DNA from: an uncultured Thermoplasmatales archaeon
Lineage (GTDB): Archaea; Thermoplasmatota; E2; DHVEG-1
Direction: 5' to 3'
Assembly: GCA_964648565.1 (NCBI GenBank)
Contig: CAZYLG010000001.1
Location: forward strand, 12,315-76,314
Length of the DNA stretch: 64,000 nt
In this document: in pieces, positions 43,707 to 63,009 of the stretch
How the letters are laid out: the number at the start of each line of letters is the position of its first letter
Position numbering within the stretch: position 1 is the stretch's first letter
Program-made: the position numbers and the translations under genes
The notes under the pieces: generated by a model
Seen by the model: the letters and a program-made list of their open reading frames with translations, nothing else
What the model was told of the DNA's origin: nothing
Databases searched by the model: none

Positions 43707-46700
43707 ATGGCATCATTTAAATTATTATGGGAAAATAACCCAGACACTCCAATAGATTCTAATCGATTATCAAGTTCTATAGATTATTATTCCAAACAAT
43801 CTATTTTATACTTTGATAGTAATGAATTGGAAAGTGGAGAAGATATATTAAAATTACGAAGTAATGTAAAAGTAAATATAGAAATCCCTACTACATTATC
43901 TGCATGGGATTTTAATAATTCATTAGTTTCATATAATAGTAAATTTGCTCCAGAAGACGCAGAAAATATTATTTTTAGAGATGAATATAATAATTCTCCA
44001 GGGAGTGTTGCGATTGATGCAGCAATCGATAATGTTCTAACAAATTCAGGATTCGAGAGTGGTTTAACTGATTGGACATTTACTGATGATAATGGTTCTA
44101 TTGTTTCAGTATCCACGTCTGAATATTATCCGTCAAATCTAAGTACTCAATCTGCAGAAATAACTGTTAATTCAAGTGGAACACTTTGTGAATTATCTCG
44201 TCAATCCGATACAAGTACAGTAGTTGGAAACTATTCACTATCATTTTATTATAAAACAAGTACAGATTTATATTTACAAATTAAAACATTTAAAAATGGT
44301 AATGATAATTATTGGAATGGCAATAATTGGGTATTTTCCCAGGCATACTTTACGATGCCTTATACAGATAATCAATGGCATAGATATGAAATGCAAGAAA
44401 TCGATGTTAGTCTTATTAATTATGTAGAAATCATTTTGTATTCTGATTATCCTAATTCGACTCATTATGTTGATTCATTTCTTTTAGAATTAAAAGATTA
44501 TTGTTCATCATATTATCCAACATCTATTGGTGATTCTCTTCTCACGTACAGTAGAGATGTTATTATTCTTCGAGAAGGTTTGATTGATTTTACATTTTAT
44601 CCTAAAATAAAAGAGGATGTAACATTATTTCTAGTAAAAAGCGTAAGCGGCAACGATTTATTAAAACTTGTATTCGATGAAAGTGAAAATAAATTTGTTT
44701 TTACGATTTATGATAAAAACACATCACAAGAATTGACGTATGATATAATTTTTAATTTTGATAATATTATTGATGAATGGACAAGAGTAATAATTAGTTG
44801 GAGTGAAACACTAAAAAAAGTATACGTAAATATCGGAACATATTTACGAGAATTTGATTTACCTACTGGGTATTTTGCTGAAGATCAAAGCAATATTAGT
44901 AAAGTATATATAGGAAGTGATTCTGACGGTACTCATCTTGCTAAATCATTATTTGAATTCCTGAAATTTGACATAGAATATAAAAATTTAGATGAAATTA
45001 ATAATTTACTTCTTTATCCTTCTGAAATTAATGATAGTGATTTTAAAGTATTCGAAAATGAAAATAAATCATTAATTATTAACCATCATTTATTAGATAC
45101 TGGCACAAATTTTGCTAATAATAGAACATATTATATTTGGGTTGCAGACAATAATGACGGTGATAGTTGTGAGCTGTTGGTGTCATTGAGCGATCATAAT
45201 CCTTCTGGATATATTTGGTATCGATCACGGATTATCGGTGGATTTAGAACTGATTCAAGTAGAAATATTATAAAAAATAGTGTATGGGATATTAGTACTA
45301 AATTAACTACTAATTTACATATTGACAGATTATTAATTGGAGGAACCCGAACCCTGACAATTGATGATGTTGGAGCTGGTGAAGATCCTACTCCAGTAGA
45401 AATTAGTACTACCCCGTATGGTGATGTAAATAATGCTATTTATAATATTGACTCCTATTTCACGCGACATGTATACGGAAGAAATATTACAGATGGAAAT
45501 TTTTTAGATATTGATAATGAAAATGGATCTATAACAATAGATGATATTCATATAGATGGTCATATAATGAATTCAAATGATACAGATTTTGAGCTGTATG
45601 CTTCTGGTTCGAATACTCTTTCTTTACATTCAGATGAAATTATAATAACATCTGAGGGAACAGACGTAAAAATTGATGATATACGAATATTGAATAATAC
45701 GATATATGTGGCAAATGGGAATGATTTAATTATTAATTCAAATATTGATGATGCAACAAGTGATAATAATATTCAGGTGATTGCAAATGATGTGATAGTA
45801 GAACCTAAAAACGATTTTGTTGTCGATGCTGATAATCAGATACAATTAACTGCAGAAAATTCTATATTGATAACATCAAATACGAATAATATAGTTACGT
45901 CTTCAAACAATTTTACCGTATCGACTGATAATATTATTACTTTAGACGATATAAAAATTGATGCTAATAAAATTTATCGTGACGGAACATTAGAAGTAAT
46001 TAATATAGAATCAACTGGTAACATTAATATTAATTCATTAGACGAGAATGTAACAATAGAAGAAATCGATTTTAATGATAATAAAATTTTTCAAACAAAT
46101 GATGTTCATCGTTATATATCATTTTATGATGATGGAAGTCCTGTGGGGTTTTCAGATTCTGCAGAAAATATTGATATCGCAGCTGGTAATAAAGTAGTTA
46201 TTGATTCTCCTGTATTCCATGTTAAATCACAGGAAGTGTGGTTTGAGGCTGATTTATCTGATTTCATACGATTAGATTATATAAAAATTAATGGAAGTCA
46301 GTTGTATACTGAAACTGGATACCCTTTGAGTATATTATCACCAGAGAATATAACAATAAATTCTGGTTCTACACTGTCACTTCAAGGACCGCCTGTACAG
46401 ATTGAAAATATAACATTAACCGATAAAACACTTGAACCATTAGACGGGGCATGGACATTAGGGAATATTATACATCAAACAAATATTAAAGGTAATGGGT
46501 TTGATGTATATAGTGAAACTGGATACGTAGATTTTAGTTCAGATATACGGGTAAGTAGTGGTAGTGGTTCTATTTTAGCGAATGCTTCATCTGCTACAGA
46601 ATTTGAAACTGCTGTAGATTTAGATTTTGCTTCTACTGATACTACTCAAATGGATACATATAATCAAGTATATACATTAACAGGAACCGAAGGTACAATT

Positions 46701-47540
46701 GATGTTGATGTGACACATACTCATGATGGTCGTTATTATACTGAAACAGAGGCAGATAATAGATTCGTAAATATGAATGGTGATACGATGACTGATGATT
46801 TAAATTTTACTATTACAGCTTCTGCGACATCAAAAGGGATAACATGGACCGGATTAACTGACGAGCATAAAATTTATGTCGAGGAGACTGCGGGAGGTGA
46901 AGAAACATCATTAATTATAGAAAGTGGAAATAACGCAGGTACTGATAAAACTATTTTTAGAAATAGAGACGGAGTAGCTCCTATTGATGTATTAACATTA
47001 AACAATAATTTAGTTCATTCTCATAAAGATGTTCAAATTGGTGATTCTGGAACATTAGAATATAACCAGTCAAACCCAGTTGGAACAGAGATATTAGGGT
47101 ATAATGGTTATTTTTATGCAAACAGGGTATATAATGCTGTATGGCAAGATTTAGCCGAATGTTGGGAAAAGAATCCTCAATATACATTTGGATATAATAT
47201 TGTTGTAGTACAAACTGAACATGGAGTAAGACCATCAATGAAACGCGCAGAGAAAACAACAGTAGGAGTAATTTCTGATACATATGGTTATATTTTGAAT
47301 GCAGATAAACTTTTTGAACATGATTTAAATAAATCAGAATCTGTTCCTGTAGCGATTGCTGGTAGAGCGATTGTAGCTTATGTAGGAGATATAGCGATTG
47401 GAGATGAGGTCGTATCATATAAAAATGGTAATTCAATTAAAGCGAATATATTTGAAAAAATATGTAAGCGAGATAGGATCCTTGGAAAGGTTGATAAAAT
47501 CTTGTCTTCAAATCTGATTAAAATAAAAGTTTATGGATAA
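43707..47540 (+). CDS. tail-fibre protein, 1277 aa. It shares the N-terminal module LLWENNPDTP..SSS and has a CBM-like jelly-roll domain and a distinct C-terminal domain.
   Basis: The CBM-like domain NVLTNSGFESGLTDWTF...YVDSFLLEL sits at ~44030..44500. RIIGGFRTDSSRNIIKNSVWDIS is conserved. HTHDGRYYTETEADNRF lies near 46720. Confidence 0.8.
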   Translation: MASFKLLWENNPDTPIDSNRLSSSIDYYSKQSILYFDSNELESGEDILKLRSNVKVNIEIPTTLSAWDFNNSLVSYNSKFAPEDAENIIFRDEYNNSPGSVAIDAAIDNVLTNSGFESGLTDWTFTDDNGSIVSVSTSEYYPSNLSTQSAEITVNSSGTLCELSRQSDTSTVVGNYSLSFYYKTSTDLYLQIKTFKNGNDNYWNGNNWVFSQAYFTMPYTDNQWHRYEMQEIDVSLINYVEIILYSDYPNSTHYVDSFLLELKDYCSSYYPTSIGDSLLTYSRDVIILREGLIDFTFYPKIKEDVTLFLVKSVSGNDLLKLVFDESENKFVFTIYDKNTSQELTYDIIFNFDNIIDEWTRVIISWSETLKKVYVNIGTYLREFDLPTGYFAEDQSNISKVYIGSDSDGTHLAKSLFEFLKFDIEYKNLDEINNLLLYPSEINDSDFKVFENENKSLIINHHLLDTGTNFANNRTYYIWVADNNDGDSCELLVSLSDHNPSGYIWYRSRIIGGFRTDSSRNIIKNSVWDISTKLTTNLHIDRLLIGGTRTLTIDDVGAGEDPTPVEISTTPYGDVNNAIYNIDSYFTRHVYGRNITDGNFLDIDNENGSITIDDIHIDGHIMNSNDTDFELYASGSNTLSLHSDEIIITSEGTDVKIDDIRILNNTIYVANGNDLIINSNIDDATSDNNIQVIANDVIVEPKNDFVVDADNQIQLTAENSILITSNTNNIVTSSNNFTVSTDNIITLDDIKIDANKIYRDGTLEVINIESTGNININSLDENVTIEEIDFNDNKIFQTNDVHRYISFYDDGSPVGFSDSAENIDIAAGNKVVIDSPVFHVKSQEVWFEADLSDFIRLDYIKINGSQLYTETGYPLSILSPENITINSGSTLSLQGPPVQIENITLTDKTLEPLDGAWTLGNIIHQTNIKGNGFDVYSETGYVDFSSDIRVSSGSGSILANASSATEFETAVDLDFASTDTTQMDTYNQVYTLTGTEGTIDVDVTHTHDGRYYTETEADNRFVNMNGDTMTDDLNFTITASATSKGITWTGLTDEHKIYVEETAGGEETSLIIESGNNAGTDKTIFRNRDGVAPIDVLTLNNNLVHSHKDVQIGDSGTLEYNQSNPVGTEILGYNGYFYANRVYNAVWQDLAECWEKNPQYTFGYNIVVVQTEHGVRPSMKRAEKTTVGVISDTYGYILNADKLFEHDLNKSESVPVAIAGRAIVAYVGDIAIGDEVVSYKNGNSIKANIFEKICKRDRILGKVDKILSSNLIKIKVYG

Positions 47541-49238: not shown

Positions 49239-52200
49239 ATGATTGAAAATATTGTTATTTCTAAAATCGGTTCAGAAACATCAGACCCAGACAGAAAAAC
49301 GTACTCATCTACTCATTCTTGGGAACAAAATGGATCCAATCTTATCGTATATGTTAATAATTCGATTAAAGTAAAAGATGAAGATTATATCGTTGTTGAT
49401 GAATTTACTATTGAATTTTCTAATTCTGTTCATACATCAGATAAAATACAATTTGTTATTACTTCTGTTACTGATCCTTCAGAGTTTTTCACGTATGAAG
49501 ATCGAATCCACCAATTAGATAGGGTGGAGAAGAAACAGGAAAATAAAGTTCAAACAACAATTAATAAACGTCCAGAAGAAGAAATTTTTAATACATATCA
49601 AATTATATCTACAGAACAAATATGGGCTACCGAAGTAGCTGATACTCCTCTTCAAGCTCAACAAGATGGAGTAGCTAGATTGCGAGATAAATTTGAATTG
49701 ACAGAAGACGTCACAGTATCGGATCATAAAGGATGGTTTGCTTCTTCTACCGGATCACTAGATGGTAGAATAACAGATTGGATTCCTCCAAGTTTTGGAC
49801 AGGGATTTACTGTTCGTTTATTTGATGATGATGATACAGAAATACCGTCGTCTGATGTGATTAAATGGAAATGGGATTACGCGGCTGGATACCTTACTAT
49901 TCAAAACTCAGATCACGATTATCAACTACCTTTTCATATTTATGGATATGAATATATAGGTAAATTTGCGTCTGATAGACTTGTAACTTGGAAAGAACCT
50001 GTATTTAGTGAAGATTTTTTACCGTTATATCATAATGAAGATGGTGATATCCGGTTGGTATTAACTGAAAATCGATTTATGCGTTTCGATTCTATAGCAA
50101 ATATGTGGAGAAATTTAAATTATGGCTCTGATATTTTACGAGATCCAGTAGTTGCTGTCGGTGATTTACCGACAGAAAATAATCAGAGAGGTGATTTACG
50201 ATTAGTATTAGAAGATAGTGATTTATATTTATGGGATGATACTATTGGTGAAAGTGGAGATTGGATAATTTTAACAGGGCAATCTTTTTCTCCAGAAAAC
50301 TATTATAAACGTGATGTTTTAGACGGATTTTTAGATGACAAATCAGACATTGGACACGTTCATGATAGTTTATATTATAGAAAACCTGAAGTCGATGATT
50401 TAGTCCGATGGAGACCCTCTCGACTTTCATTTAATGATTTACCTCCGTATACAGAGAATATAGACGGTGATGTTATTCTAACTCGTGATACAAATACCAT
50501 TTATCGCTGGGTAACTGAAAACCCCAATACTGGTCAGGGGCATTGGGAACCTATAGTTCAATCTAATTTTACATGGAAAGGTCCAGTTGATCAATTGAAT
50601 GATTTACCTCCAATAGGAAATAATCCTGGTGATGTTCGTTTGGTAAGAGATGAAGAAATAGCCTATTGGTGGGACGGAACTGAATGGAAAGAATTAAAAT
50701 CAACTATTCAAGAACATGATCATGATGATGTATATATATTAAAAACAAATTTTTATTGGAAACCACCTGTTACATCTTTTGGAGATTTACCATCAGTTGA
50801 TAATAATGATGGTGATGTACGACTTACATTAGATGATAATTTAATTTATCGTTGGGATTCCTACAACTATAAATGGACGTTAATCTCATATCGTTCATCG
50901 TGGCGCTCACCAGTAGAAACATTAACGGAATTACCAAGTGATAATGATGATAATGATGTTATTTTTGTTAAAGAAACTTCTCAAGTATATTATTGGGATG
51001 AAGATGAATCTATATGGAATTCTATTGAACTAAAGGATCATAATCACGATGATGTATATTACACGCAATCAGAGATAAATGACTTATTTGATACAAGTTC
51101 TGGTCATGATCATGATGGAGTAAATTCTCGTCAGATCAATTATAATGATTTATTAAATATACCTTATTTCTATTGGAAAAATCCAGTAGTATATGATACT
51201 GATCTGCCTGCTTCTGGGAATACACCAGGAGATGCAAGAATTGTATTAAACAACAAATCAATTCATGTTTGGACCGGTACTGAGTGGTTTCTTATTGTAT
51301 CTGGTGAATTTGTTTTAGAACATGATCATGATAGTAGATACTATACAGAAACTGAAATGGATACAATCATTAATAATACAATTACCTCATTAACTGCTCA
51401 AATTGCTACAAAAGCAAATGTTATCCATGATCATGATGATATATATTATCGAAAAGATTTTATTAATACTCATATTAATGATTTTGAACAACATGAACAT
51501 GATGGTATTGATTCTAAAAGAATAAATTTTCATGATTTAGAAAATATTCCAGATTTTAGTATTAATCATGATCATGATCATCGATATTATACACAAACAG
51601 AACTTCAAACTCCCGGACAGTCATCAGTACATTTCGAAAATATTACTAATATGCCTGCTTTTACTAGTAATTGGAAAAGTCCTGTTCAAGAATATAGTGA
51701 TCTTCCAATGACTGGTAATGAAGAAGGTGATTTACGTATTGTATTGGATACAAGAGAGATTTATGAATGGGATGGTAGTGGATGGAATTACGTAGGTGTA
51801 TGGGATGTGTCTACTACATCGAACTGGAAAGATCCTGTTAACACAACTGGAGATTTACCTTTAGTTGATAATATTAATGGTGATGTACGATTAGTATTAT
51901 CAACAAATACATTTTATCGATGGAACGCTGTTCAAGAAGAATGGATAATTATTCAAGCTGCAGGAGGTGGTGGATCAGAAAACTTTTTAGAAGAAAGCAC
52001 GATTCTTGTATTCAAAAATGGAATAAATTTACAAAAAGATGAAGAGTGGGAAATATCGGGCACATCATCGATAAATTTATTAATTGATACAGAAGATCAA
52101 GACAAAATCGCTATTATTGTTTATCATAGTAATAGTAATTTTTATCGAAGATATGACTTCACATCATTCGCGTTACAGCAGTCATTTGAGATTGGAACAG

Positions 52201-54317
52201 CAAGAGTTTTCCGACAAGAAACAGTATTATCCGAAGGGCAAACTACTGTAACATTGGCATCTCCATATACAATAGGAAGTGGTGATTTGTTGATATGGTG
52301 GAATGGTTTATTACAGAAAAGAGGAGATGATTATACAGAAACTTCTCAAACGACAATAGAATTAATTGAGGAGGCAGAAGAAGATGATGTTATTATAGCA
52401 TTGATTTTTGATTCAGCCGGTGCAAATACCATTTTTACGAAAGAAGAACAGGTGGCTACACAGGATCAACAAGAATTTGAATTAGAATATACGTATAGGG
52501 TAGGACAAAATCATTTATTAGTATATCTTAATGGACAATTACAGGAGGTTGATAGTGATTATGTTGAAATTGATGTAAATACAATTGAGTTATTAGATCC
52601 TCTTGATGCTGGAGAAAAACTTACATTTATGGCATTTAATGCTGATTTTTCATCTGGTGAGGATGAGATATCTACCGCGTGCGATTTACCAATAGGAACC
52701 CCACCAGATGGTTATTGGTCAGATGGATTGTTTCCTTGGAATTCAAATACACTTACATGTGAAGCATTAGATGATATTAATGAAGCCTTAGTTGGTTTAA
52801 CGACAGACAAACCATCAACACTCGATGGAGTTGAATTAATATGTTCTGCTACGTTAAAAGAGGGTTGGATATCAGACGGTAATGTAAACACAGAAGATGG
52901 TGTTGGAATTGAGAAAAATTATCTTATACACAATGCTGTATTTGATGTATATACTCCTGATAACTCACTATTAGATGCAGATGAAGGTATGATAAAATTA
53001 CTTGTGAATGGATCAGAAGTTGATTCGTTTCATTTAGGTAATGCATTTATAGAATCAGATAGAGCAAACGATGATGGCCAATCTGCCCTTCGTTACGGAC
53101 AGATGGCATACGGAGCATTGGCAAATGTTGGTCAATCTTCAACTCATGGAGGTATACGTGATTCAGACAATGGATATATAACAGTTGTGTTTGTAACAAA
53201 ATATCAAGAATTTACAAATTGGCAATATGGAAAAATTAAAATAAATGTCGATAATTCTTTATTACAAAGTGGATATAATGAAATTCAACTTCGCCATCAA
53301 TTATCAGCAAATATAAGAAATTCAACAATATTCAAAGTGTTTTATGATGATTCTATGAATGCACCAATCGTTGATACTGATATTACTATTATAGAAGATG
53401 AATTAAATTCAAATAAATACCTATCTGGAATCAGATATTATTCTATTGGTGATATTTTTGACATATCATTTAGTATTGATAATATATTTGATTCCACATA
53501 TGTACAAGATATTATTAGTTATACATTTCCTGGTACTGATAATATCGAACTGGATGTGGATGACGGTGATTTGAGTGGTGTATCACTTATACCCCATAAA
53601 GATGATATCGTGGACTATAATGGTTTAGTAGTAATAAATGAAGTTAATGAATATTCAATTGATGCTAAAGTTGGAGTTAATTTATATTATCCATTCGGTA
53701 CGAATGGCGAATTTATTTCAGATTCATATAATATATTAATTAACACTCATCAAATTTCTTCATCGAATTTAGAAGAAAATTTTTATGACGAATATTATCG
53801 TTTACCTATAGGAAATTATGATACGATACCTAATCCAATTACTAATAATTGGAATAGTTCACAATTATTGTCTGACGGTAATGCATTGATATTCGATGGT
53901 TCTTTACAATATGCAAATATAGAATTAACTGATTATTTACCCAATCAAACTGTTGACTACACTGGATTTTCTTTAGATCAGATGTATCTGCGAGCATTTC
54001 GTCATAATGATGCCCCTCACAACAGCGGTAAAATTCTTATCGATGGAATTAGTAAAAACGACCTTCTAACCAACAAGATAATAATAGACATCAAATTACC
54101 AACTCAGACTGGTTGGTTAAATGCGAATACTCGATATGATGTGGCTTCATTTGATGGAGAGGACGGTGATGGATGTTTGGTTGATGTTGAAGATGATTTT
54201 ATTTATTATACATCGGGGGTATATTCGACGGCGTATAGTAGTAAAATGATTATAGTACGTTTAACATTACAATCAGATTCACCGTCGGTGAATAAAATTA
54301 AGTTGTTTTGGGATTAA
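49239..54317 (+). CDS. giant fibre/neck-like protein, 1692 aa. Eight copies of a ~40-aa W(K)xPV...DLP...GD.R.VL...W repeat alternate with eight HDHD..YY-type His motifs.
   Basis: W-repeat starts near 49989, 50139, 50573, 50756, 50901, 51174, 51672 and 51825. HxH motifs sit near 50357, 50716, 51040, 51100, 51322, 51427, 51492 and 51567. The N-terminal region shares PFH(I/L)YGY(E/R)YIG with the 347-aa protein. No SD was found. Confidence 0.8.
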   Translation: MIENIVISKIGSETSDPDRKTYSSTHSWEQNGSNLIVYVNNSIKVKDEDYIVVDEFTIEFSNSVHTSDKIQFVITSVTDPSEFFTYEDRIHQLDRVEKKQENKVQTTINKRPEEEIFNTYQIISTEQIWATEVADTPLQAQQDGVARLRDKFELTEDVTVSDHKGWFASSTGSLDGRITDWIPPSFGQGFTVRLFDDDDTEIPSSDVIKWKWDYAAGYLTIQNSDHDYQLPFHIYGYEYIGKFASDRLVTWKEPVFSEDFLPLYHNEDGDIRLVLTENRFMRFDSIANMWRNLNYGSDILRDPVVAVGDLPTENNQRGDLRLVLEDSDLYLWDDTIGESGDWIILTGQSFSPENYYKRDVLDGFLDDKSDIGHVHDSLYYRKPEVDDLVRWRPSRLSFNDLPPYTENIDGDVILTRDTNTIYRWVTENPNTGQGHWEPIVQSNFTWKGPVDQLNDLPPIGNNPGDVRLVRDEEIAYWWDGTEWKELKSTIQEHDHDDVYILKTNFYWKPPVTSFGDLPSVDNNDGDVRLTLDDNLIYRWDSYNYKWTLISYRSSWRSPVETLTELPSDNDDNDVIFVKETSQVYYWDEDESIWNSIELKDHNHDDVYYTQSEINDLFDTSSGHDHDGVNSRQINYNDLLNIPYFYWKNPVVYDTDLPASGNTPGDARIVLNNKSIHVWTGTEWFLIVSGEFVLEHDHDSRYYTETEMDTIINNTITSLTAQIATKANVIHDHDDIYYRKDFINTHINDFEQHEHDGIDSKRINFHDLENIPDFSINHDHDHRYYTQTELQTPGQSSVHFENITNMPAFTSNWKSPVQEYSDLPMTGNEEGDLRIVLDTREIYEWDGSGWNYVGVWDVSTTSNWKDPVNTTGDLPLVDNINGDVRLVLSTNTFYRWNAVQEEWIIIQAAGGGGSENFLEESTILVFKNGINLQKDEEWEISGTSSINLLIDTEDQDKIAIIVYHSNSNFYRRYDFTSFALQQSFEIGTARVFRQETVLSEGQTTVTLASPYTIGSGDLLIWWNGLLQKRGDDYTETSQTTIELIEEAEEDDVIIALIFDSAGANTIFTKEEQVATQDQQEFELEYTYRVGQNHLLVYLNGQLQEVDSDYVEIDVNTIELLDPLDAGEKLTFMAFNADFSSGEDEISTACDLPIGTPPDGYWSDGLFPWNSNTLTCEALDDINEALVGLTTDKPSTLDGVELICSATLKEGWISDGNVNTEDGVGIEKNYLIHNAVFDVYTPDNSLLDADEGMIKLLVNGSEVDSFHLGNAFIESDRANDDGQSALRYGQMAYGALANVGQSSTHGGIRDSDNGYITVVFVTKYQEFTNWQYGKIKINVDNSLLQSGYNEIQLRHQLSANIRNSTIFKVFYDDSMNAPIVDTDITIIEDELNSNKYLSGIRYYSIGDIFDISFSIDNIFDSTYVQDIISYTFPGTDNIELDVDDGDLSGVSLIPHKDDIVDYNGLVVINEVNEYSIDAKVGVNLYYPFGTNGEFISDSYNILINTHQISSSNLEENFYDEYYRLPIGNYDTIPNPITNNWNSSQLLSDGNALIFDGSLQYANIELTDYLPNQTVDYTGFSLDQMYLRAFRHNDAPHNSGKILIDGISKNDLLTNKIIIDIKLPTQTGWLNANTRYDVASFDGEDGDGCLVDVEDDFIYYTSGVYSTAYSSKMIIVRLTLQSDSPSVNKIKLFWD

Positions 54318-55184: not shown

Positions 55185-55410
55185 AGGACTACAATCAATA
55201 CTTGAAGCTCAACAAAAACAAAGAGATAAGTTACAGGATTCAGAATCAGATGGTCCAGATAATAATGAAGTTATTAGTATTCTTAAATTAATATTTGAAT
55301 ATATGAAAAAAAATGATTCATATATTATGGATGTTGTTAATTCATTAGCAGATAGTCATAAGGAAGTTAAAAATCAATTAGAAGAAATCAATAAAAAATT
55401 GGATAAATAA
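55174..55410 (+). CDS. hypothetical protein, 78 aa
   Basis: Overlapping coupled ORF. Confidence 0.4.
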   Translation: MAIEGLQSILEAQQKQRDKLQDSESDGPDNNEVISILKLIFEYMKKNDSYIMDVVNSLADSHKEVKNQLEEINKKLDK

Positions 55411-56453
55411 TGAATAAAGAAGATTTGTTGTATAAAAATTACAAATCAAGAGAATTTACTTCAGATGATAAAAAATGGTATGAGGAAAAAACATCCGATC
55501 CTCAACATATCCATTTTGGTAATGTTCTTCTTGATGAAATTCCAGAATCACCCCCAGCTATTACCACAGACGTAGTAGAAATTATCAGTGATCTTACTCT
55601 AACTAAAGATTTTACCACAGATGATAATAAGGCATGGTATGCATGTTCTACTCAAGGAATATTGAGTACTCGTTTATACGATTTTATACAACCAGATAAA
55701 AATAAATCGAATAAATATAATATTAAAATTTTTGATAATACAGGTATCCAATTATTAGTTGATGACATTCTATGGGACTTTGATTATCAGAATGGAATAC
55801 TTACGTTTGAAACGGATCCAACATTAGAATACGAAGCTCCTTTCCATTTATACGGGTATCGTTATATTGGTGAAAAAGCATCGAAAGAATCATTAGGTGC
55901 TCAAACATTAGATGAAGCATACAACGGTGGATCAGAAATTAATACAGACAATGGTCCCGTTATTATTACACCATCGGCTGGATCATCAGCATTAAAAATA
56001 ACATCAGTAGATTATGTACCTACAGAAGATTTAACCGGTGATGAATTAATTAACTATAAGGGTATTTTATACATCTATGACACATTTAGAAGTACATGGA
56101 TTAGTCTCGATCGTCAAACTGTCAGTTTCGGTGTTAAGAGAGCAGATGGAATATTCTTGAATTTAAGTAATTTTTCTTCGAATATGAGTGGATGGCCCGC
56201 AATACGTGATGGAATGATTTTAGGTATCACAGCCCAAGCTGCAGGGGGGTATCCCAATAAAAGAATTAAACTATTCAAAAAAGATACCCCAGGACCACTT
56301 TTTGAATTCGATTTAGATGATTTATTTTATGCGAATGGAGATATTGGTATCCCATTCGAGAAAAATGATTTAATTAAGATATTCGTGTCATCAGAATTTA
56401 GCACAGTATATAATCTTATAGTAAATATAGAAATAGGATGGAGAGCTTCTTAA
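55410..56453 (+). CDS. structural protein, 347 aa, sharing a ~80-aa domain with the N-terminus of the 1692-aa protein
   Basis: KAWYACSTQG...DFDYQNGILTFETD...PFHLYGYRYIG aligns with KGWFASSTGS...KWDYAAGYLTIQNS...PFHIYGYEYIG. Confidence 0.55.
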   Translation: MNKEDLLYKNYKSREFTSDDKKWYEEKTSDPQHIHFGNVLLDEIPESPPAITTDVVEIISDLTLTKDFTTDDNKAWYACSTQGILSTRLYDFIQPDKNKSNKYNIKIFDNTGIQLLVDDILWDFDYQNGILTFETDPTLEYEAPFHLYGYRYIGEKASKESLGAQTLDEAYNGGSEINTDNGPVIITPSAGSSALKITSVDYVPTEDLTGDELINYKGILYIYDTFRSTWISLDRQTVSFGVKRADGIFLNLSNFSSNMSGWPAIRDGMILGITAQAAGGYPNKRIKLFKKDTPGPLFEFDLDDLFYANGDIGIPFEKNDLIKIFVSSEFSTVYNLIVNIEIGWRAS

Positions 56454-56815
56454 ATGTTCAAATAATGCAATAATGTTTTTGCTTTTAAAGTAGCATAATC
56501 AGGGTATTGTTTCACATATTCACGCGCATCGAGAAAATAAAGAGCTGCTGAACTTTTAGATTTAATGTAAATCATACTCCACCAAAATCTTTCTTCATCA
56601 GACATCTCGGAATTAAATGATAAAAGTACACTTCCATTTTCACATGGAAAATCAAGTGATCCCCCAATAAAGTAACCACCAGCTTTATCGAAAAAAATGT
56701 CTTTTAATACATCTTTATGCTCACCATTGCTACGTGTCTGCATATCATAAGTATGTGTATCTTGCGCGACAGGGGTTTCATCTTTCTGAACAAAAATTTT
56801 CTTCAACAAATTCAA
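56450..56815 (-). CDS. hypothetical protein, 121 aa. The start is uncertain: the track start overlaps the CCA gene stop by 38 nt, and an internal Met at residue 25 (about 56743) would remove the overlap.
   Basis: Its stop overlaps the stop of the convergent + gene by sharing TTAA. Confidence 0.35.
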   Translation of the reverse strand: MNLLKKIFVQKDETPVAQDTHTYDMQTRSNGEHKDVLKDIFFDKAGGYFIGGSLDFPCENGSVLLSFNSEMSDEERFWWSMIYIKSKSSAALYFLDAREYVKQYPDYATLKAKTLLHYLNI

Positions 56816-58115
56816 GAACTTTCTCCTTATCTGTTAACTCATCTTCTAATTGAAGAATACGCACAGAATCTAAAATTTTTTTAAAAATAGGACCAGGTTT
56901 AAATCCTAATGTAATTAAATCATTGCCATCGATAATTGGATCTGGTAATAATGTTTCCGGGGTGTCAAATTCTTTTTGTTTTTCTCTAATAAATGTCAAC
57001 CATCCAAAAGAATCTTTGCTTTTACCAACACAATCGGCAGCACAAAGAGTCAGTAACTCTTCAATCCATTCCTCGGCAAGCAACATCCTGACAGTAGATT
57101 TTTTCATCTTTTTCACGTCATAGGGTTTCATATGATTTTTTACAAGAAACACTACCTTATCGATAAATTTATTAGAGAACTTAAAACGAGTCAAAATGTC
57201 TTCAGTAATTTCAGCTCCAACATGAGCATGCCGTTTTGAAGTGATGACTCCATCAATGATTTTAGTAGTTGAAGGTTTACCGACATCATGCAGAAGAGCA
57301 GCCCAAATTAGTTCTGTAGAACTATCTTTAGGAAGAGCTTCCATAACCTGAATTGTATGTTCAGAAACCCAAATTTCGGGATGAAATTTTTTATTTTGGC
57401 GACAGGTAAACATTACTTCGATTTCAGCAAGTACGACAAATAAAATGCCTGATTCTCTCAATAATGTAAGAGCTCGTCGAGGCTGGTGATACGAAAATAA
57501 TTTCACTAATTCATCTCTAATTCGTTCTTTTGATACAGTCATGATTTCAAGTGAATTATCACAAATAGCTTTCCATGTTTCTTCTTCAATAGAAAAACCC
57601 AATTTTACAGCAAAACGGATTGCTCTTAGAAGACGAAGTTTATCCTCTTTAATTCTTTCTTCGGGGTTGCCAATAAATCTAATTCTTCTTTCAAGTAAAT
57701 CTTCAATACCGTTTACATAATCTAATGTTTCATCTGTCATAGGATCATAAAATAAACCATTGATGGTAAAATCTCTCCTTTGAGCATCTTTTTCAGCTGT
57801 AGAAAAAGAAATAGAAGAAGGCCGTCTTCCATCTTCATATTCGATATCTGTACGGAATGTCGATACCTCAAAAGAATATCCATTCTCGATGACGTTAATA
57901 ACTCCAAAAGCCTTTCCAATGGGAACCGTTTTTTTGAAAATATGCTCAATTTCTGATGGTTTAGCTGATGTAGCAATATCAATATCAGAAGGATGCGTAC
58001 CGAATTTCATGTCTCTTACAGCACCACCAGCAATATAAGCAGTATGGCCATAATCTTTAAGAGTGGAAATAATAGATGTAGCAATCTGTAGTTCAGTCAT
58101 ATATATATTATACAT
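56778..58115 (-). CDS. cca: CCA-adding tRNA nucleotidyltransferase with a C-terminal HD domain, 445 aa
   Basis: Pol-beta head-domain motifs GGAVRD...DIDIAT and RRDFTING. HD motif LLHDVGKP. Confidence 0.8.
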   Translation of the reverse strand: MYNIYMTELQIATSIISTLKDYGHTAYIAGGAVRDMKFGTHPSDIDIATSAKPSEIEHIFKKTVPIGKAFGVINVIENGYSFEVSTFRTDIEYEDGRRPSSISFSTAEKDAQRRDFTINGLFYDPMTDETLDYVNGIEDLLERRIRFIGNPEERIKEDKLRLLRAIRFAVKLGFSIEEETWKAICDNSLEIMTVSKERIRDELVKLFSYHQPRRALTLLRESGILFVVLAEIEVMFTCRQNKKFHPEIWVSEHTIQVMEALPKDSSTELIWAALLHDVGKPSTTKIIDGVITSKRHAHVGAEITEDILTRFKFSNKFIDKVVFLVKNHMKPYDVKKMKKSTVRMLLAEEWIEELLTLCAADCVGKSKDSFGWLTFIREKQKEFDTPETLLPDPIIDGNDLITLGFKPGPIFKKILDSVRILQLEDELTDKEKVLEFVEENFCSER

Positions 58116-58136: not shown

Positions 58137-59039
58137 TTATCCGAATTTTTTTGTAGTATCAAAAGTAGAATGTAGTGAGGCAACCAATTCTTTTTGTTTC
58201 TCATTCAATTGCTTTGGGTATTCAATATGCACCCGTATAATCATATCTCCTCGAGTATTTTCGGCGATAGGAAATCCTTTATTTTTTATTACAAATGATT
58301 GTCCATCTTTGATACCTTCTGGTATAGAAGTTTTGATGTTCTCACCATCTATATTTTTAATAAAAATTGTATCACCAAGAAGAGCTTGTGTAAAATTAAT
58401 TGTTATTGTACATAGTAAATTATATCCATCGTATTGAAAAAATGGATGAGCTTTTAGCCGTGGATATATTTTTATATCTCCTGCCTTTCCACCGTTCATT
58501 CCATGATGGCCTTCACCTTTTAGTACAATTGGTTTATTAGGATTAAAGCCTTTTTGGATGTTTAATTTAAATGTCCTCTTTTTTTCTACTATAACTCCGT
58601 GTTCATTCTCTCTTCGGGTTATCGGAATATTCATTGATTTACCAGTAAATACATCAATAAAATCCAACCGAACTTCAATTTTAATATCTTTACCTTTTCT
58701 TTTTCTTTGAGATCCGCCCATTCCGAATGTGGTAAAAATATCTTCCCATGTGTCCGTTCCCCCTCCCCATGTGAATCTAACATTAAATCCGCCGAATGGA
58801 TCACCACCCGTAGAAGCAAAAGGATTACCACTTCCACTAAACGGGTTGGGGTTATCATATTCTTTTCGTTTTTGTTCATCAGATAGAATAGAGTACGCTT
58901 CTTGAATTTCTTTAAATTTAGTGTCATCACCCTGAGATGTATCTGGATGATATTGTTTTGAGAGTTTTCTATACGCTTTTTTTATTTCATCTTGTGAGGC
59001 ATTTTTATCTACTCCTAATATTTTATAATAATCTTTCAT
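58137..59039 (-). CDS. DnaJ/CbpA-like J-domain co-chaperone, 300 aa: J domain, G/F-rich linker and C-terminal substrate-binding domains, with no CxxCxGxG zinc finger
   Basis: [33 protein letters not shown] contains the HPD motif. Followed by a Gly/Phe-rich region. Confidence 0.8.
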
Positions 59040-59668: not shown

Positions 59669-59950
59669 TCAATCAATTCTTACTAATATAAATCTGGGTA
59701 GTTCACGTGAAGTATCAAAAATTTTACGTATATTCTCTTCATTGATATTTTTTCCTGTTAAATGTACAATGTGATCTTCTAATTGAGTAAAAGTAGCAGA
59801 AGAAACTTCATAACTTGTGATATAAAATTCTCCTATTATTCGATCCTTAATCTCTTGTACTTTTTCACCGTTAAGTAATAAAATGGCTAAATCGACTAAT
59901 TCGTCTTTACTTAATGAATTCACGTCTTTCATATAATATACCTCGGACAT
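59669..59950 (-). CDS. hypothetical protein, 93 aa
   Basis: ORF only. Confidence 0.4.
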   Translation of the reverse strand: MSEVYYMKDVNSLSKDELVDLAILLLNGEKVQEIKDRIIGEFYITSYEVSSATFTQLEDHIVHLTGKNINEENIRKIFDTSRELPRFILVRID

Positions 59951-60963
59951 TTTCTATTATTTTCAATTAATTGTTTTCTAAATTGTTTTACTTCTTCTGA
60001 ATTCCATATCTGAAAAAAATTATTTGAAAATAAAACACTAATACCATTTTTTTCTTCAAGAAATGAACATGGAAAAAACTCCCCTTTAGCATTAATGTAT
60101 GACGAGAATAATCCAGACTCACATGGCTCTACAAATTCTTCATACATCGAACGATTTTCAATATTATCTAAAAATTTATTTGCCGAACATGAATCAAATC
60201 CTATAGGGACATTATAATTAATAGCTTTATTTACGAGATGTTTAAAACTCTCTTTATTGAGAATATTATGGTTTTCTCCTCGACCTTTTTGCTTAAGAGA
60301 GAGAAAAATAATGGCGTTAACATGTTTATCATCAAACGTATTAATTAAATCAAGGGCTTTCGAATATGTTTCTTGCATGAGGGGAAAATGAATATTAATT
60401 TGTTTCATACCATTTTTATACAGTTTATCGACTAATCGGAATGTTTTTCCTTTATCATAATAAGAGATTGCTACAGCTCCAAAATATGAAGCGATTTTTC
60501 TTGCCATATCATCAGTTAATTCCTCATAACAATGCATTGTAAAATTGGGTATAATACCAGATTTTCGAGCATATTTCGCCATCTCAAAAAAATCAGGATT
60601 AGTATTAATATTCATAATTCCAAATGCAATTTGGGTTAATTGAGGCCCCATTTTATGTAATATTTCTTTAAATTCATCAAATGTCATATTATATGTTGGA
60701 TAATTTCCGTTTGATTTATAACAGAATGAACATTGTCCTTTACATCCTCCATCATAAACAAGTCTATCTTCTGGATAGTTTTCAGAATTGTGGACAGATG
60801 TGCTGATCTCGATGTCAAGTATTTCAGGTCCTATTGGAGAATAATCTGGGTCATCATCAATATCTTTACCCCAACGAATAAAAAGACCGTTGTGTTTATC
60901 AAAATTATAATTATAATTTTTACTTCGTACTATTTTTTCATCTTTAGAATTATATATCTTCAT
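59929..60963 (-). CDS. radical SAM domain protein, 344 aa, with additional C-terminal cysteines
   Basis: CKGQCSFC is the CxxxCxxC [4Fe-4S]/SAM-binding motif. C-terminal cysteines lie in VEPCESG...FPCSF...RKCPRY. Confidence 0.65.
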   Translation of the reverse strand: MKIYNSKDEKIVRSKNYNYNFDKHNGLFIRWGKDIDDDPDYSPIGPEILDIEISTSVHNSENYPEDRLVYDGGCKGQCSFCYKSNGNYPTYNMTFDEFKEILHKMGPQLTQIAFGIMNINTNPDFFEMAKYARKSGIIPNFTMHCYEELTDDMARKIASYFGAVAISYYDKGKTFRLVDKLYKNGMKQINIHFPLMQETYSKALDLINTFDDKHVNAIIFLSLKQKGRGENHNILNKESFKHLVNKAINYNVPIGFDSCSANKFLDNIENRSMYEEFVEPCESGLFSSYINAKGEFFPCSFLEEKNGISVLFSNNFFQIWNSEEVKQFRKQLIENNRKCPRYII

Positions 60964-61777: not shown

Positions 61778-61981
61778 TCATATATTGATTATATAATAAT
61801 TGGAACCTATTATTACATCATCGATGTATACAGGAAGTTCATAAAGTACTAAACCAGTGGGAGTAATTGTGAATGAGTCGTCTCCATATAATTTTCTTTT
61901 CGCTGTTTCAGCAACTGTTTCATTTCTACATATTTCTCGAATATAACGAAATGAATCATTCCCCATTACAACTATTTTCAA
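61778..61981 (-). CDS. hypothetical protein, 67 aa
   Basis: ATGA overlap with the upstream DHH gene. Confidence 0.35.
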   Translation of the reverse strand: MKIVVMGNDSFRYIREICRNETVAETAKRKLYGDDSFTITPTGLVLYELPVYIDDVIIGSNYYIINI

Positions 61982-63009
61982 TCTCCCTCGCCTTCTTCTT
62001 CATAATTCCAATTTTCTTTTAATACATTTTTAAACATATGTTTTCGTGTTACTTTCCAGAATGCATCGGAGTTTTTATCATCTAAATCTGTATAAAAATT
62101 TAATGGAATTTTTGCTGCTCCAGCGTTAGATTTCCCGCCTCCATATTCGCCGAATAAATCTTTCATCATTTGATTTACATCTAAACTAACTAGATGAGTT
62201 CTGATTGAAACTTCTAAATATTTTTTACCGGTAATTGCGAATATGACTGCTGTTTGAACTGATTCCATTCGAGTATATTCTTCAGCCAATATTGCTATAA
62301 CATCTCGCTGATCAGTAGGTACAAGACCAATTCCTCCTACAAATACTCCATTCGCTTCTTGTGAATTTCCTTCTTCATGTAATTTAATTCTTTTATCATA
62401 TAAATATCGAGGCAATGGATAATTCATGGCTTTTTGAAGGACATCTTTATCTGCTAATTCTAATAACTCTTGATATGCTACGAAATCATTTTTAGTCATA
62501 TGCTCGCTAATTAAGTCATTTGTATCGGTTCTAATACCAAGAAGTAAAGCGGTATATACATCAGAATGTTCAGTAGATATCTCTATTTTATATTCTTTTA
62601 ATAATTCCCATACTAATGTTGCGTTGGCTCCGTAATTTACGTCAATAATTTTATTTTTTGCTTTAGAGTCACTTTTATGATGATCAATGACCAGTGATGG
62701 ATTACGTGCTATAGAATTATGTTCAGTACAATCAACACAAATTTCTATTGAATCTTCAGTTAATTTTTCTTTTTTTATAATTGGTATACTCAATAAATTA
62801 ACGATAGTTTTATTTTGTGGGTGGGAGATATCTCCAGAATATATGATTTTACAATCGTAATCATAATACTGAAGCAATAGAGCTATTCCGAGAGCTGATC
62901 CAACTGCATCTGGATCAGGAGCTGGATGTACTATGATGTTAATGTTTGGTTCTTCTATTTCTTTTAATGTTTCGAGAAAACTATCTACAATTGTTTTTTT
63001 ATTCTTCAT
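61978..63009 (-). CDS. DHH/DHHA1-family phosphoesterase, NrnA-like nanoRNase/pAp phosphatase type, 343 aa
   Basis: N-terminal HPAPDPDAVGSALG and DHH (VIDHHKS). The C-terminal DHHA1 motif is GGGKSNAGAAKI, which is GGGH..AAG-like. Confidence 0.7.
   Translation of the reverse strand: MKNKKTIVDSFLETLKEIEEPNINIIVHPAPDPDAVGSALGIALLLQYYDYDCKIIYSGDISHPQNKTIVNLLSIPIIKKEKLTEDSIEICVDCTEHNSIARNPSLVIDHHKSDSKAKNKIIDVNYGANATLVWELLKEYKIEISTEHSDVYTALLLGIRTDTNDLISEHMTKNDFVAYQELLELADKDVLQKAMNYPLPRYLYDKRIKLHEEGNSQEANGVFVGGIGLVPTDQRDVIAILAEEYTRMESVQTAVIFAITGKKYLEVSIRTHLVSLDVNQMMKDLFGEYGGGKSNAGAAKIPLNFYTDLDDKNSDAFWKVTRKHMFKNVLKENWNYEEEGEGD

Follow-up and report, generated by a model that had tools for sequence, protein, structure and literature searches.

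A predicted CCA-adding tRNA nucleotidyltransferase with a fused HD(IG) domain in an uncultured large phage and its possible part in tRNA 3′-end repair

The enzymes with an HD(IG) domain that are annotated as CCA tRNA nucleotidyltransferase in genome assemblies of Verrucomicrobiota, Acidobacteriota and Omnitrophota are proteins of ~435-450 aa composed of a head, a neck with an RNA-binding domain, the HD(IG) domain and a tail. Rv3907c from Mycobacterium tuberculosis is a characterised example of the HDIG type, and both a CCA-adding activity and an HD-dependent phosphatase activity were demonstrated for it (PMC10673834). The CCA-adding enzyme of Escherichia coli also combines the head with an HD domain, and an HD-dependent phosphatase activity was demonstrated for it as well (PMC10673834); the 2′,3′-cyclic phosphodiesterase activity goes back to Yakunin 2004, as cited in PMC10673834.

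Phage homologues are collected in PHROG 2244, whose members include Tunturiibacter phage Tunturi_5 gp279 and proteins from Mycobacterium phage Phabba, Halogranum tailed virus 1, and many Vibrio, Escherichia, Erwinia and Klebsiella phages; the family occurs widely among large phages. The phage tRNA nucleotidyltransferase was put forward earlier, in comparative work, as an RNA-repair component (PMC7824862), and the repair idea for phage CCA enzymes has been published (Iyer et al. 2021). The T4 Pnkp and Rnl1 pair and the RlaP/ligase modules follow the same logic, with phage enzymes that heal RNA ends after host nucleases have cut tRNAs and make these tRNAs whole again. Those systems ligate breaks in the anticodon loop, whereas a CCA/HD enzyme would rebuild the 3′ tail without a ligase. 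Such genes are timely, since bacterial immunity was recognised in 2026 to attack the 3′ tails of tRNAs directly (Cas12a3, Cas13-CASK). Cas12a3 clips the CCA tails of tRNAs, cutting at 2-4 nt inward from the 3′ end, as far as the discriminator base, and viral resistance was described as "yet unknown" (PMC12851939). RsCas13-CASK clips CCA tails and leaves 2′,3′-cyclic phosphate ends, and a Cas13 variant frees the CCA trinucleotide, which then serves as a signal. Phage enzymes that unite CCA addition and HD end healing are widespread, and they are obvious candidates for resistance to tRNA-tail cleavage.

The window analysed here is a stretch of 64 kb out of a source contig of 117,045 bp. Short Logan contigs of 16.6, 3.5 and 3.6 kb matched by protein and extend this sequence by ~1.4 kb; exact-pattern scans of viral and genome contig collections gave no match. 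The ORF at 56778-58115 is complete, starts with ATG, and encodes a protein which, judged by its sequence, is a class II tRNA nucleotidyltransferase of the CCA-adding type with a fused HD(IG) phosphohydrolase domain (Table 1). The original prediction considered the gene to be phage-encoded, and this was borne out: neighbouring ORFs match baseplate-wedge and tail-fibre PHROGs, and a distant similarity to gp6-like baseplate proteins of myoviruses was detected in the window. These matches support a phage setting. Genes for a DnaJ protein, a DHH phosphoesterase (DHH/DHHA1) and a radical SAM protein are located nearby. As had been stated before, the window contains no tRNA gene detectable with ARAGORN, and Rfam gave nothing at gathering score across the whole 64 kb. 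No homologue of an RNA ligase, RlaP or a kinase, the repair partners of the T4-like and RlaP systems, was found in the 64-kb window, and the Pfam matches of the neighbouring genes include none. Promoter and terminator scans between 55 and 64 kb returned sites no more numerous than in shuffled sequence.

Table 1. Predicted features of the CCA/HD gene and the adjoining small ORF (positions in the window; aa, residues of the 445-aa protein).
Feature	Position	Strand	Evidence
Complete CCA/HD ORF, 445 aa	56778..58115	-	ORF call, Pfam, NCBIfam, PHROG, PDB, AlphaFold2, Foldseek
Head, catalytic Pol-beta nucleotidyltransferase domain, aa 26-146	57678..58040	-	Pfam PF01743, 1MIV alignment, motifs, conservation
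Motif A GGAVRD, aa 30-35	58011-58028	-	Motif scan
DIDIAT, aa 44-49, DxD carboxylates D44/D46	57969-57986	-	Motif scan
E83 in FEVSTFR, third catalytic carboxylate	within head domain	-	Motif scan, conservation
Flexible loop, aa ~89-104	within head, between motifs A and B	-	1MIV alignment
Motif B RRDFTING, aa 113-120	57756-57779	-	Motif scan
Neck region: motif D, PolyA_pol_RNAbd, motif E	57417..57647	-	Pfam, motif scan
Motif D EDKLR, aa 157-161	57633-57647	-	Motif scan
PolyA_pol_RNAbd domain, aa 173-233	within neck region	-	Pfam
Motif E ERIRDELVKLF, aa 197-207, CCA-type ERxxxExxxhh signature	57495-57527	-	Motif scan; definition in PMC10673834
HD(IG) phosphohydrolase domain, aa 245-361	57033..57383	-	Pfam HD, TIGR00277, conserved ligands, 3WFO homology
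LLHDVGKP, aa 274-281, contains H276-D277	57273-57296	-	Motif scan
C-terminal tail, aa 362-445, helical, part of tRNA_NucTran2_2	56781..57032	-	Pfam, AlphaFold2 model
Small conserved ORF immediately downstream, 97 aa from ATG	56450..56743	-	Homologues at the same viral position

The class II head motifs GGAVRD, DIDIAT and RRDFTING and the HD motif LLHDVGKP, on which the original prediction was based, are all present, far beyond chance, and alignment revealed that the catalytic residues D44 and D46 are present and conserved. The domain assignment was indicated by Pfam for the head (PF01743 PolyA_pol, e-value 6e-36, 124 bits with the cut-off 23), PolyA_pol_RNAbd (4e-18), tRNA_NucTran2_2 (3e-6) and HD (PF01966, 6e-10, 39.8 bits with the cut-off 22), and by TIGR00277 for HDIG (34.2 bits with the cut-off 27.6). 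PHROG 2244, named "tRNA nucleotidyltransferase", aligns aa 24-425 with positions 3-386 of its 392 (5.2e-76). The best match by sequence is PDB 1MIV, the CCA-adding enzyme of Bacillus stearothermophilus (2e-48), which covers the head and the neck; the C-terminal half of 1MIV shows no significant sequence match to the phage HD region (the second stretch reaches 0.9 bits). The same protein is the best structural match over the full length (E 2e-22, TM 0.74/0.83) when the AlphaFold2 model (pLDDT 94.8, pTM 0.90) is used as the Foldseek query, and every one of the top 46 Foldseek matches belongs to the class II tRNA nucleotidyltransferases or to the poly(A) polymerases of that class.

The head aligns with 1MIV with only a single one-residue gap, and the RRD residues of motif B, which in this class recognise ribose, and the EDxxR residues of motif D, which serve as an amino-acid template for CTP/ATP, are placed on R110-R111-D112 and E153-D154..R157 of 1MIV, respectively. 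The flexible loop (aa 89-104, TDIEYEDGRRPSSISF) aligns to the loop of 1MIV gap-free, and the local fall of pLDDT to 79 is consistent with mobility. The columns of motif A are invariant or nearly so across the homologues. Among 124 columns conserved at 90% or more, the phage protein agrees with the homologues at 114, including every catalytic position, and it has the catalytic, templating and HD ligand residues in common with the bacterial CCA-adding enzymes with an HD(IG) domain. It is very probably an active CCA-adding/HD enzyme, although the catalytic activities and the in vivo substrate are predictions.

None of the NCBIfam equivalog cut-offs is reached. The best model is the Bacillus-type NF009814 (261.3 bits with the cut-off 290); TIGR02692 gives 216 bits with the cut-off 439, and the E. 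coli-type NF008137 gives 141 bits with the cut-off 451. The earlier description of the protein as "E. coli-type" is thus appropriate for the domain architecture, a head and an HD domain with aa 26-365 aligned to positions 3-349 of NF008137, but not for the sequence: the phage protein is not an orthologue of E. coli Cca, and its head and neck are nearer to the Bacillus type.

The HD domain is homologous to the HD region of PDB 3WFO. Its ligand set consists of H245, H253, H276-D277, H296, H328 and D361, and K280 is also present and likewise invariant in homologues. These ligands are invariant in 119 database homologues and in all 79 viral homologues, and their retention in the viral copies points to selection on the HD domain in phages. 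By analogy with the work on the E. coli and M. tuberculosis enzymes, the phage HD domain would have 2′,3′-cyclic phosphodiesterase activity. The conserved motif HPEGD, which comes before the first ligand in CCA-type HD domains and is found in the bacterial enzymes from Verrucomicrobiota, Acidobacteriota and Omnitrophota, reads HPEIW in the phage protein (aa 245-249; G248I and D249W). Columns 248 and 249 are conserved at 99% and 96%, respectively, among the closest database homologues; position 249 varies among the 79 viral copies, of which 39 have D, 25 have T and 10 have N. The sub-threshold NCBIfam scores count against the explanation preferred below, and HPEIW in place of HPEGD may do so too.

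The gene is real and belongs to a widespread and already named phage gene family. Phage copies are common: GenBank has at least 500 phage records of them, including at least 49 from Escherichia, 38 from Klebsiella and 89 from Vibrio phages, and IMG/VR has at least 533 contigs, which were counted with an alignment query, as a single-sequence query of IMG/VR gave no close relative. The novelty implied by the original prediction was overstated, since, in addition, PMC7824862 had raised counter-defence for phage CCA enzymes before. There is nothing out of the ordinary about this particular gene. Its sequence places it in a divergent clade seen only in metagenomes: the identity to any GenBank phage copy is 38.8% at most, megablast with 14 kb of sequence surrounding the gene gave no match among GenBank phages, and the closest relatives (50-54% identity) are on virus-like contigs. 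The neighbours of the best cultured-phage homologue, Tunturi_5 gp279, are uninformative. Among cellular proteins, the nearest are CCA-adding enzymes that carry an HD domain, from assemblies of Verrucomicrobiota, Acidobacteriota and Omnitrophota (42-49% identity). The DNA around the phage gene has ~31-34% GC, against a median of 58% at the cellular loci, and the GC content of the gene itself matches that of the phage. A recent capture from a host was considered and set aside: the identity profile is flat (50-54% for viruses, 42-49% for several bacterial phyla), the GC is phage-like, and neither a donor nor a host can be inferred from these two features.

The viral homologues are physically linked to genes for the RNA-repair nucleotidyltransferase RlaP and for Rnl1, Rnl2-like ligases and RtcB. 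In the relative L009 (49.5% identity), a metallophosphatase-like ORF is followed in order by an AAA_33 kinase, the CCA/HD gene, RlaP, Rnl1, an RNA ligase and tRNA-Lys(UUU). The metallophosphatase-like ORF has no Pfam match of its own, and its cluster-mate in L005 belongs to PF00149. RlaP is unable to use 3′-phosphorylated ends (PMC12776372), and an adjoining phosphoesterase therefore makes functional sense. Some RNA-repair-type neighbour is present in 23 of the 70 distinct viral loci; RlaP is found in 15 of the 70, and in 11 of these it is less than 1 kb away on the same strand. Of 87 viral loci, 15 have RlaP within 3 kb, whereas of 80 cellular loci just 1 does (Fisher p = 3e-4). The comparison thus yields two testable observations, the presence of the HD ligands in every viral copy examined and the frequent adjacency of RlaP to viral, but not to cellular, copies. 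The tRNA genes near the viral homologues are of two kinds. Genes without an encoded CCA lie beside the CCA/HD gene in L009/L010 (tRNA-Lys UUU and tRNA-Met, checked on the sequence itself), L088 (15 genes), L036, L090 and part of L016. In L021, L035, L073 and L084, essentially all nearby tRNA genes encode CCA, and the enzyme is thus not needed there for maturation. No tRNA gene lies within 10 kb of the CCA/HD gene in the closest relatives L004, L006, L018 and L026.

The original prediction offered either support for phage tRNAs or repair of host tRNAs. The related viral loci support both roles, tRNA maturation and RNA repair, while nothing in the window itself links the gene to defence. In the explanation preferred here, the gene encodes a bifunctional tRNA 3′-end maintenance enzyme of an uncultured large myovirus. 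The head and the neck would add C74, C75 and A76, without a template, to tRNAs missing all or part of CCA, with D44, D46 and E83 as the probable catalytic carboxylates, D158 and R161 of EDxxR as the probable templating residues, and the flexible loop permitting the switch to A addition. The HD(IG) domain would act as a metal-dependent phosphoesterase and clear 2′,3′-cyclic, 3′- or 2′-phosphates that block the 3′-OH. The enzyme would keep the tRNA pool chargeable during infection, and its main selective benefit would be to mend tRNA 3′ ends damaged by host toxin or defence RNases, with the completion of phage tRNA transcripts without an encoded CCA as a compatible second use. To this explanation as a whole, an active CCA/HD enzyme with repair as the main benefit, we assign a probability of about 0.5; the choice of repair as the main benefit, considered separately, is tentative and falls a little short of even odds. 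The window, as described above, lacks tRNA genes as well as genes for an RNA ligase, RlaP or a kinase, which counts against the repair role. To our knowledge, every bacterium has its own CCA enzyme, and the need for a phage copy is therefore not obvious.

An enzyme that is not CCA-adding at all, namely a poly(A) polymerase, a CC-adding or an A-adding enzyme, or one that tails RNA other than tRNA, would agree with the name "poly(A) polymerase" given by JGI to many close homologues and with the 216 bits for the pcnB subfamily model TIGR01942, and sequence cannot prove specificity within the class II enzymes. Nevertheless, a poly(A) polymerase, a CC-adding enzyme and an A-adding enzyme were each rejected on signature motifs. 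The pattern [LIV][LIV]G[RK][RK]Fx[LIV]h[HQL][LIV], which we take to be the bacterial poly(A) polymerase signature of Martin and Keller 2004, has no match in the protein. The use of this signature as a criterion is mentioned in PMC10673834. In A-adding enzymes a small residue replaces the first E of motif E (ERxxxExxxhh), and CC-adding enzymes carry a deletion of the flexible loop that lies between motifs A and B (PMC10673834); in the phage protein, ERxxxExxxhh is present, the motif scan found no match to the A-adding variant, and the loop is retained. Both the top-scoring NCBIfam model and the closest structure represent CCA-adding enzymes, and the E. coli poly(A) polymerase is without an HD domain, unlike the E. 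coli CCA-adding enzyme (PMC10673834). With these features, a function other than CCA addition is very improbable. A possible but doubtful alternative concerns the substrate: the enzyme may mainly mature CCA-less tRNAs of the phage encoded elsewhere, freeing phage translation from the CCA-adding capacity of the host. In the literature, large phages rich in tRNA genes are associated with tRNA nucleotidyltransferase genes, the window covers only 64 kb of a 117-kb contig, and the CCA-less tRNA genes described above adjoin the gene in several relatives. Against it stand the window and the four closest relatives, which are devoid of tRNA genes in the ranges given, and the four loci whose nearby tRNA genes encode CCA. 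Maturation also leaves unexplained the conservation of the HD ligands in 79 of 79 viral copies and the virus-specific linkage to RlaP, and the host enzyme would normally perform it.

Bacterial CCA enzymes mend the routine turnover of tRNA 3′ ends, and the phage copy may be a general booster of this repair during host shut-off and exonuclease nibbling, with neither a specific enemy nor phage tRNAs involved. For such routine CCA-end repair, PMC12851939 cites Wellner et al. 2018. The location of the gene among "housekeeping-like" auxiliaries (DnaJ, DHH phosphoesterase, radical SAM), not in a repair cluster, favours a booster, but a host with its own enzyme would leave little benefit to be gained, and a booster does not account for the virus-specific placement of the relatives' genes beside RlaP and RNA ligases, which makes this account quite improbable. 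At the other extreme, the enzyme could be a dedicated countermeasure of the phage against immune nucleases that clip tRNA tails (Cas12a3, Cas13 with CASK, HEPN-type toxins). The HD domain would heal 2′,3′-cyclic phosphates left at N73 by metal-independent nucleases and the head would rebuild CCA; the nearby DHH/DHHA1 phosphoesterase might help and could degrade short RNA products, and the conserved small downstream ORF may act together with the enzyme. If true, translation would be restored, and the question of viral resistance to tail cleavage raised in the Cas12a3 paper would be answered. The Cas12a3 cut can reach the discriminator, and a discriminator once lost is beyond the reach of a CCA-adding enzyme, which argues against repair; experimental proof of a phage CCA enzyme countering a defence was not found in the literature reviewed. 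An anti-defence role is plausible, and the enzyme may have a counter-defence effect, but dedication to such nucleases is unlikely.

The small downstream ORF is possibly a partner of the CCA/HD gene. As called, it has 121 aa from a TTG at 56815 and overlaps the CCA gene by 38 nt. It has no Pfam or PHROG match, and a word-indexed search returned only the ORF itself. A phmmer search of 1.84 billion representatives recognised about ten homologues, all of them small and unannotated; further matches to long repetitive proteins look spurious. Homologues of the small ORF are located at the same position in the viral loci L006, L018/L019 and L026.

The CCA/HD gene encodes a 445-aa protein, starts with ATG, and lies exactly where it was originally predicted (see the table). 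All the motifs read in that prediction, GGAVRD (residues 30-35), DIDIAT (44-49), RRDFTING (113-120), and LLHDVGKP (274-281), were recovered. The protein matches the Pfam families PolyA_pol (head; 6e-36), PolyA_pol_RNAbd (4e-18), HD (6e-10), and tRNA_NucTran2_2 (3e-6), all above their gathering scores, as well as PHROG 2244 "tRNA nucleotidyltransferase" (5e-76) and the structure of the Bacillus stearothermophilus CCA-adding enzyme (PDB 1MIV, 2e-48). These profile matches are far above chance level. The features defining class II tRNA nucleotidyltransferases are complete: motif A with DxD, E83 in FEVSTFR, motif B RRD, and motif D EDKLR. The DxD carboxylates of motif A, the catalytic Asp residues whose absence would have spoken against the prediction, are present in both the 1MIV alignment and the motif scan.

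Three criteria that distinguish CCA-adding enzymes from their relatives were taken from a study of the Mycobacterium tuberculosis CCA enzyme (PMC10673834). The motif scan found motif E of the CCA type (ERIRDELVKLF), and neither the A-adding variant of this motif nor the bacterial poly(A) polymerase signature was matched in the protein. The flexible loop, which is lost by CC-adding enzymes according to the same study, aligns without deletion to the loop of 1MIV. Together, the type of motif E, the intact loop, and the lack of the poly(A) polymerase signature indicate a full CCA-adding enzyme. The AlphaFold2 model (alignment depth of 84 homologues) is of very high confidence, with a mean pLDDT of 94.8 and a pTM of 0.90. 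Its best whole-chain match in PDB is 1MIV (TM 0.74/0.83), and no protein other than class II tRNA nucleotidyltransferases and poly(A) polymerases occurs among the first 46 structural matches.

The description of the enzyme as E. coli-type holds for the domain architecture only; the corresponding equivalog NF008137 requires 451 bits, and the protein reaches 141. Among NCBIfam models, the highest score is to the Bacillus-type NF009814, whose cut-off of 290 bits is also missed (261 bits); an actinobacterial CCA model and then the pcnB subfamily come next. The closest cellular relatives, with 42-49% identity, are CCA+HD enzymes in genome assemblies of Verrucomicrobiota (Spartobacteria, Terrimicrobiaceae, and Chthoniobacterales), Omnitrophota, Acidobacteriota, and Planctomycetota, several of which are annotated as CCA tRNA nucleotidyltransferase.

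The C-terminal half is an HDIG-type HD domain (PF01966, 39.8 bits; TIGR00277, 34.2 bits with the cut-off 27.6), and the only solved structures with sequence similarity to it are 3WFO-3WFS, a class II enzyme sharing the HD region. The ligand set is complete (H245, H253, H276-D277, H296, H328, and D361). In an alignment of 119 database homologues, 124 columns are at least 90% conserved, and the phage protein differs at 10 of them; eight of these changes are conservative or away from catalytic positions. The two notable ones, G248I and D249W, are within the HPEGD motif that immediately precedes the first HD ligand. Viral contigs supplied 79 homologues, in which the position of D249W is variable (D in 39, T in 25, N in 10). 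Every HD ligand is conserved in all 79, which argues that selection maintains this domain in phages. No signs of decay were seen in the window copy. Phosphohydrolase activity was demonstrated experimentally for the E. coli CCA enzyme (Yakunin 2004, as cited in PMC10673834) and for the HDIG-type enzyme of M. tuberculosis, where H298A abolished it (PMC10673834); the conserved ligands suggest that the window protein may have the same activity. Both the CCA-adding part and the HD phosphoesterase of this protein are predicted to be active, with a probability of roughly 0.9, and a wholly different specificity is very improbable.

That the gene is phage-encoded was borne out by nearby ORFs matching baseplate-wedge and tail-fibre PHROGs. 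The gp6-like baseplate protein shows ~25% identity to T4-like cyanophages, Sinorhizobium phages, and others, and the GC content is uniformly ~25-37% across the window. Near-identical DNA was not found among GenBank phages. An identical CCA/HD protein is on record in one NCBI contig (117,045 bp) and one Logan assembly, and the next best proteins show 50-54% identity. A neighbour-joining tree places the window protein inside a 15-member clade. All clade members or immediate neighbours with readable context (proteins P0002, P0005, P0010, P0064, and P0028) are on virus-like contigs with many small unannotated ORFs and genes for HNH, WGR, 5'-3' exonuclease, SbcC-like ATPase, ThyX, DnaB, and tail-fibre-like proteins. 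Tail-fibre-like proteins are common to the window and the related viral loci L004, L006, L018/L019, and L026, and a homologue of the small ORF following the CCA/HD gene is found at the same position in L006, L018/L019, and L026. These contexts and common genes indicate that the gene is settled in a phage lineage and was not acquired recently.

Phage copies of the CCA/HD gene are generally common: at least 500 GenBank phage records have a tblastn match, and at least 533 IMG/VR viral contigs were confirmed by pattern scan. Among the matches listed are 89 Vibrio, 49 Escherichia, 43 Erwinia, and 38 Klebsiella phage records; the best homologue among them is from Tunturiibacter phage Tunturi_5 (38.8%), and none exceeds 39% identity. 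The window copy is a new, divergent representative of a phage gene family that is known and already has a name.

Of 90 related viral loci collected, 87 were analysed; merging their CCA proteins at >=90% identity left 70 distinct ones. The commonest neighbours not confined to one lineage are RNA-repair genes, and at least one neighbour of this type is present in 23 of the 70 distinct loci. The RNA-repair nucleotidyltransferase RlaP (PF10127; members verified) is found in 15, in 11 of which it is on the same strand less than 1 kb from the CCA/HD gene; verified RtcB is found in six, a metallophosphatase-like family in five, Rnl2-like ligase in four, and Rnl1 in three. The representative of the metallophosphatase-like family has no Pfam match, and its L005 member is recorded as PF00149. 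The distance between RlaP and the CCA gene is at most 3 kb in 15 of 87 viral loci versus one of 80 cellular CCA loci from GTDB genomes (Fisher p = 3e-4). The RlaP-adjoining viral loci are L009/L010, L015, L022, L029-L031, L034, L036, L039, L046, L065, L074, L082, L083, and L085. The clearest repair cluster is at 3688-12004 of L009 (also in L010), whose CCA protein is 49.5% identical to the window protein. Its order is metallophosphatase-like protein, AAA_33 P-loop kinase, CCA/HD, RlaP, Rnl1, RNA ligase, and tRNA-Lys(UUU), with tRNA-Met slightly beyond; neither tRNA gene encodes CCA. RlaP extends the 3'-OH ends of cleaved tRNAs by one or two nucleotides and is inactive on 3'-phosphorylated ends (PMC12776372), so an adjoining HD phosphoesterase would help RlaP. 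The adjacency and the L009 cluster suggest that the HD domain may provide 3'-end healing for repair by RlaP and ligase.

During infection, the protein would act as a tRNA 3'-end maintenance enzyme, in which the HD domain would remove 2',3'-cyclic or 3'(2')-phosphates from tRNA ends and the head domain would restore C74-C75-A76. The selective benefit is tentatively placed in the repair of nuclease-damaged tRNA ends. The idea had been put forward before: in Iyer et al. 2021, the CCA-adding enzyme ranks second in frequency among the nucleotide-restoring enzymes of jumbo-phage RNA-repair systems, and HD-like phosphatases are mentioned as well (PMC7824862). What is newer since then is suitable enemy nucleases. 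A Cas13 cuts tRNA tails and frees a 5'-OH CCA trinucleotide messenger (bioRxiv 10.64898/2026.08.25.746378); because the cut is metal-independent, the tRNA body should carry a 2',3'-cyclic phosphate. Cas12a3 also cuts CCA tails. Its cuts often extend past CCA up to the discriminator base (PMC12851939), and a lost discriminator base cannot be restored by a CCA enzyme. Inside the 64-kb window, nothing links the gene to defence, and no published test of any phage CCA enzyme against a defence was found in the literature examined.

The original prediction also named support for phage tRNAs, noting correctly that the window has none (ARAGORN finds 0 across 64 kb; no Rfam family reaches its gathering score). 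Of the 90 related viral loci, 16 have tRNA genes no more than 10 kb from the CCA/HD gene. The tRNA genes of L009/L010 (read directly), L088, L036, and most of those of L090 do not encode CCA, which is consistent with the completion of such tRNAs by the enzyme. The enzyme is nevertheless kept where nearby tRNA genes nearly all encode CCA (L021, 11/11; L035, 22/23; L073, 10/10; L084, about 25/26), that is, even where maturation does not need it, and this fits the repair of damaged ends. Completion of phage tRNAs is rated an unlikely main benefit, and a generic boost of end repair an improbable one, though all three benefits are compatible with one another. The split into two groups probably reflects the tRNA gene style of the hosts, and is a potential means to tell a maturation role from a repair role.

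In the window, the CCA/HD gene sits within a tightly packed minus-strand block converging on the tail-fibre module, in the order DHH/DHHA1 phosphoesterase, small ORFs, radical SAM/SPASM protein, small ORFs, DnaJ-like protein, CCA/HD, and small conserved ORF. Homologues of RNA ligase, RlaP, polynucleotide kinase, or phosphatase were not found within the 64 kb.

Features of the window, with the CCA/HD gene and its surroundings
Feature	Position	Strand	Length (aa)	Remark
Large ORF	763-9930	+		
533-aa ORF	13095-14696	-	533	between baseplate-wedge gene and 120-aa ORF
Large ORF	18006-28853	+		
Large ORF	30793-36324	+		
Large ORF	36340-39828	+		
Large ORF	43707-47540	+		
Large ORF	49239-54317	+		
Last gene of tail-fibre module	55410-56453	+		
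Small conserved ORF	56450-56743, called as 56450-56815	-	97-121	directly downstream of CCA/HD gene
CCA/HD gene	56778-58115	-	445	
DnaJ-like co-chaperone	58137-59039	-	300	J domain and DnaJ C-terminal domain; directly upstream of CCA/HD gene
Radical SAM/SPASM protein	59929-60963	-		phrog_7293, 1.8e-80
DHH/DHHA1 phosphoesterase	61978-63009	-	343	same block, ~3.9 kb upstream of CCA/HD gene

No Pfam or PHROG family matches the small downstream ORF, and a search of 1.84 billion representative proteins gave only ~10 small homologues; its product may act together with the CCA/HD enzyme. The ORF converges with the last gene of the tail-fibre module, their stop codons overlapping by 4 nt, and no terminator-like site was found between the two opposed blocks. 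The DnaJ-like protein scores 245 bits to TIGR02349, under the cut-off of that model; in L007, a J-domain-only protein is encoded 2 kb away from the CCA gene. Radical SAM/SPASM proteins recur no more than 10 kb from CCA/HD in four distinct viral loci, with copies in L009 (14363-15373; 37% identity to the window protein over the full length), L014, and L020. The DHH/DHHA1 protein matches Mn-pyrophosphatase and NrnA models of NCBIfam weakly. It also matches positions 85-284 of NF041569, an 880-aa "A-adding tRNA nucleotidyltransferase" model, positions 469-697 of which match the head of the CCA/HD protein; the model thus contains a DHH-like region as well as the head of a class II nucleotidyltransferase. 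The DHH/DHHA1 protein could be a candidate for action on short RNA products.

The window gene is unsurprising to a specialist, its functional hypothesis being already published, and cultured phages carrying homologues are better test systems than the window phage. The virus-specific adjacency of RlaP, the universal HD ligands of viral copies, and the small downstream ORF may prove of greater use than this gene.

The six very large ORFs of the window (1162-3615 aa) are all on the plus strand. Twelve repeats in the 3055-aa ORF match phrog_24210, a tail-fibre family, the 1277-aa ORF has an mtd_2nd (major tropism determinant) domain, and the 3615-aa ORF is almost without recognisable family. The 533-aa ORF matches PHROGs labelled "homing endonuclease" (1e-127) and "HNH endonuclease" (5e-99); the site is unusual for an endonuclease gene, and the PHROG annotation may be wrong.
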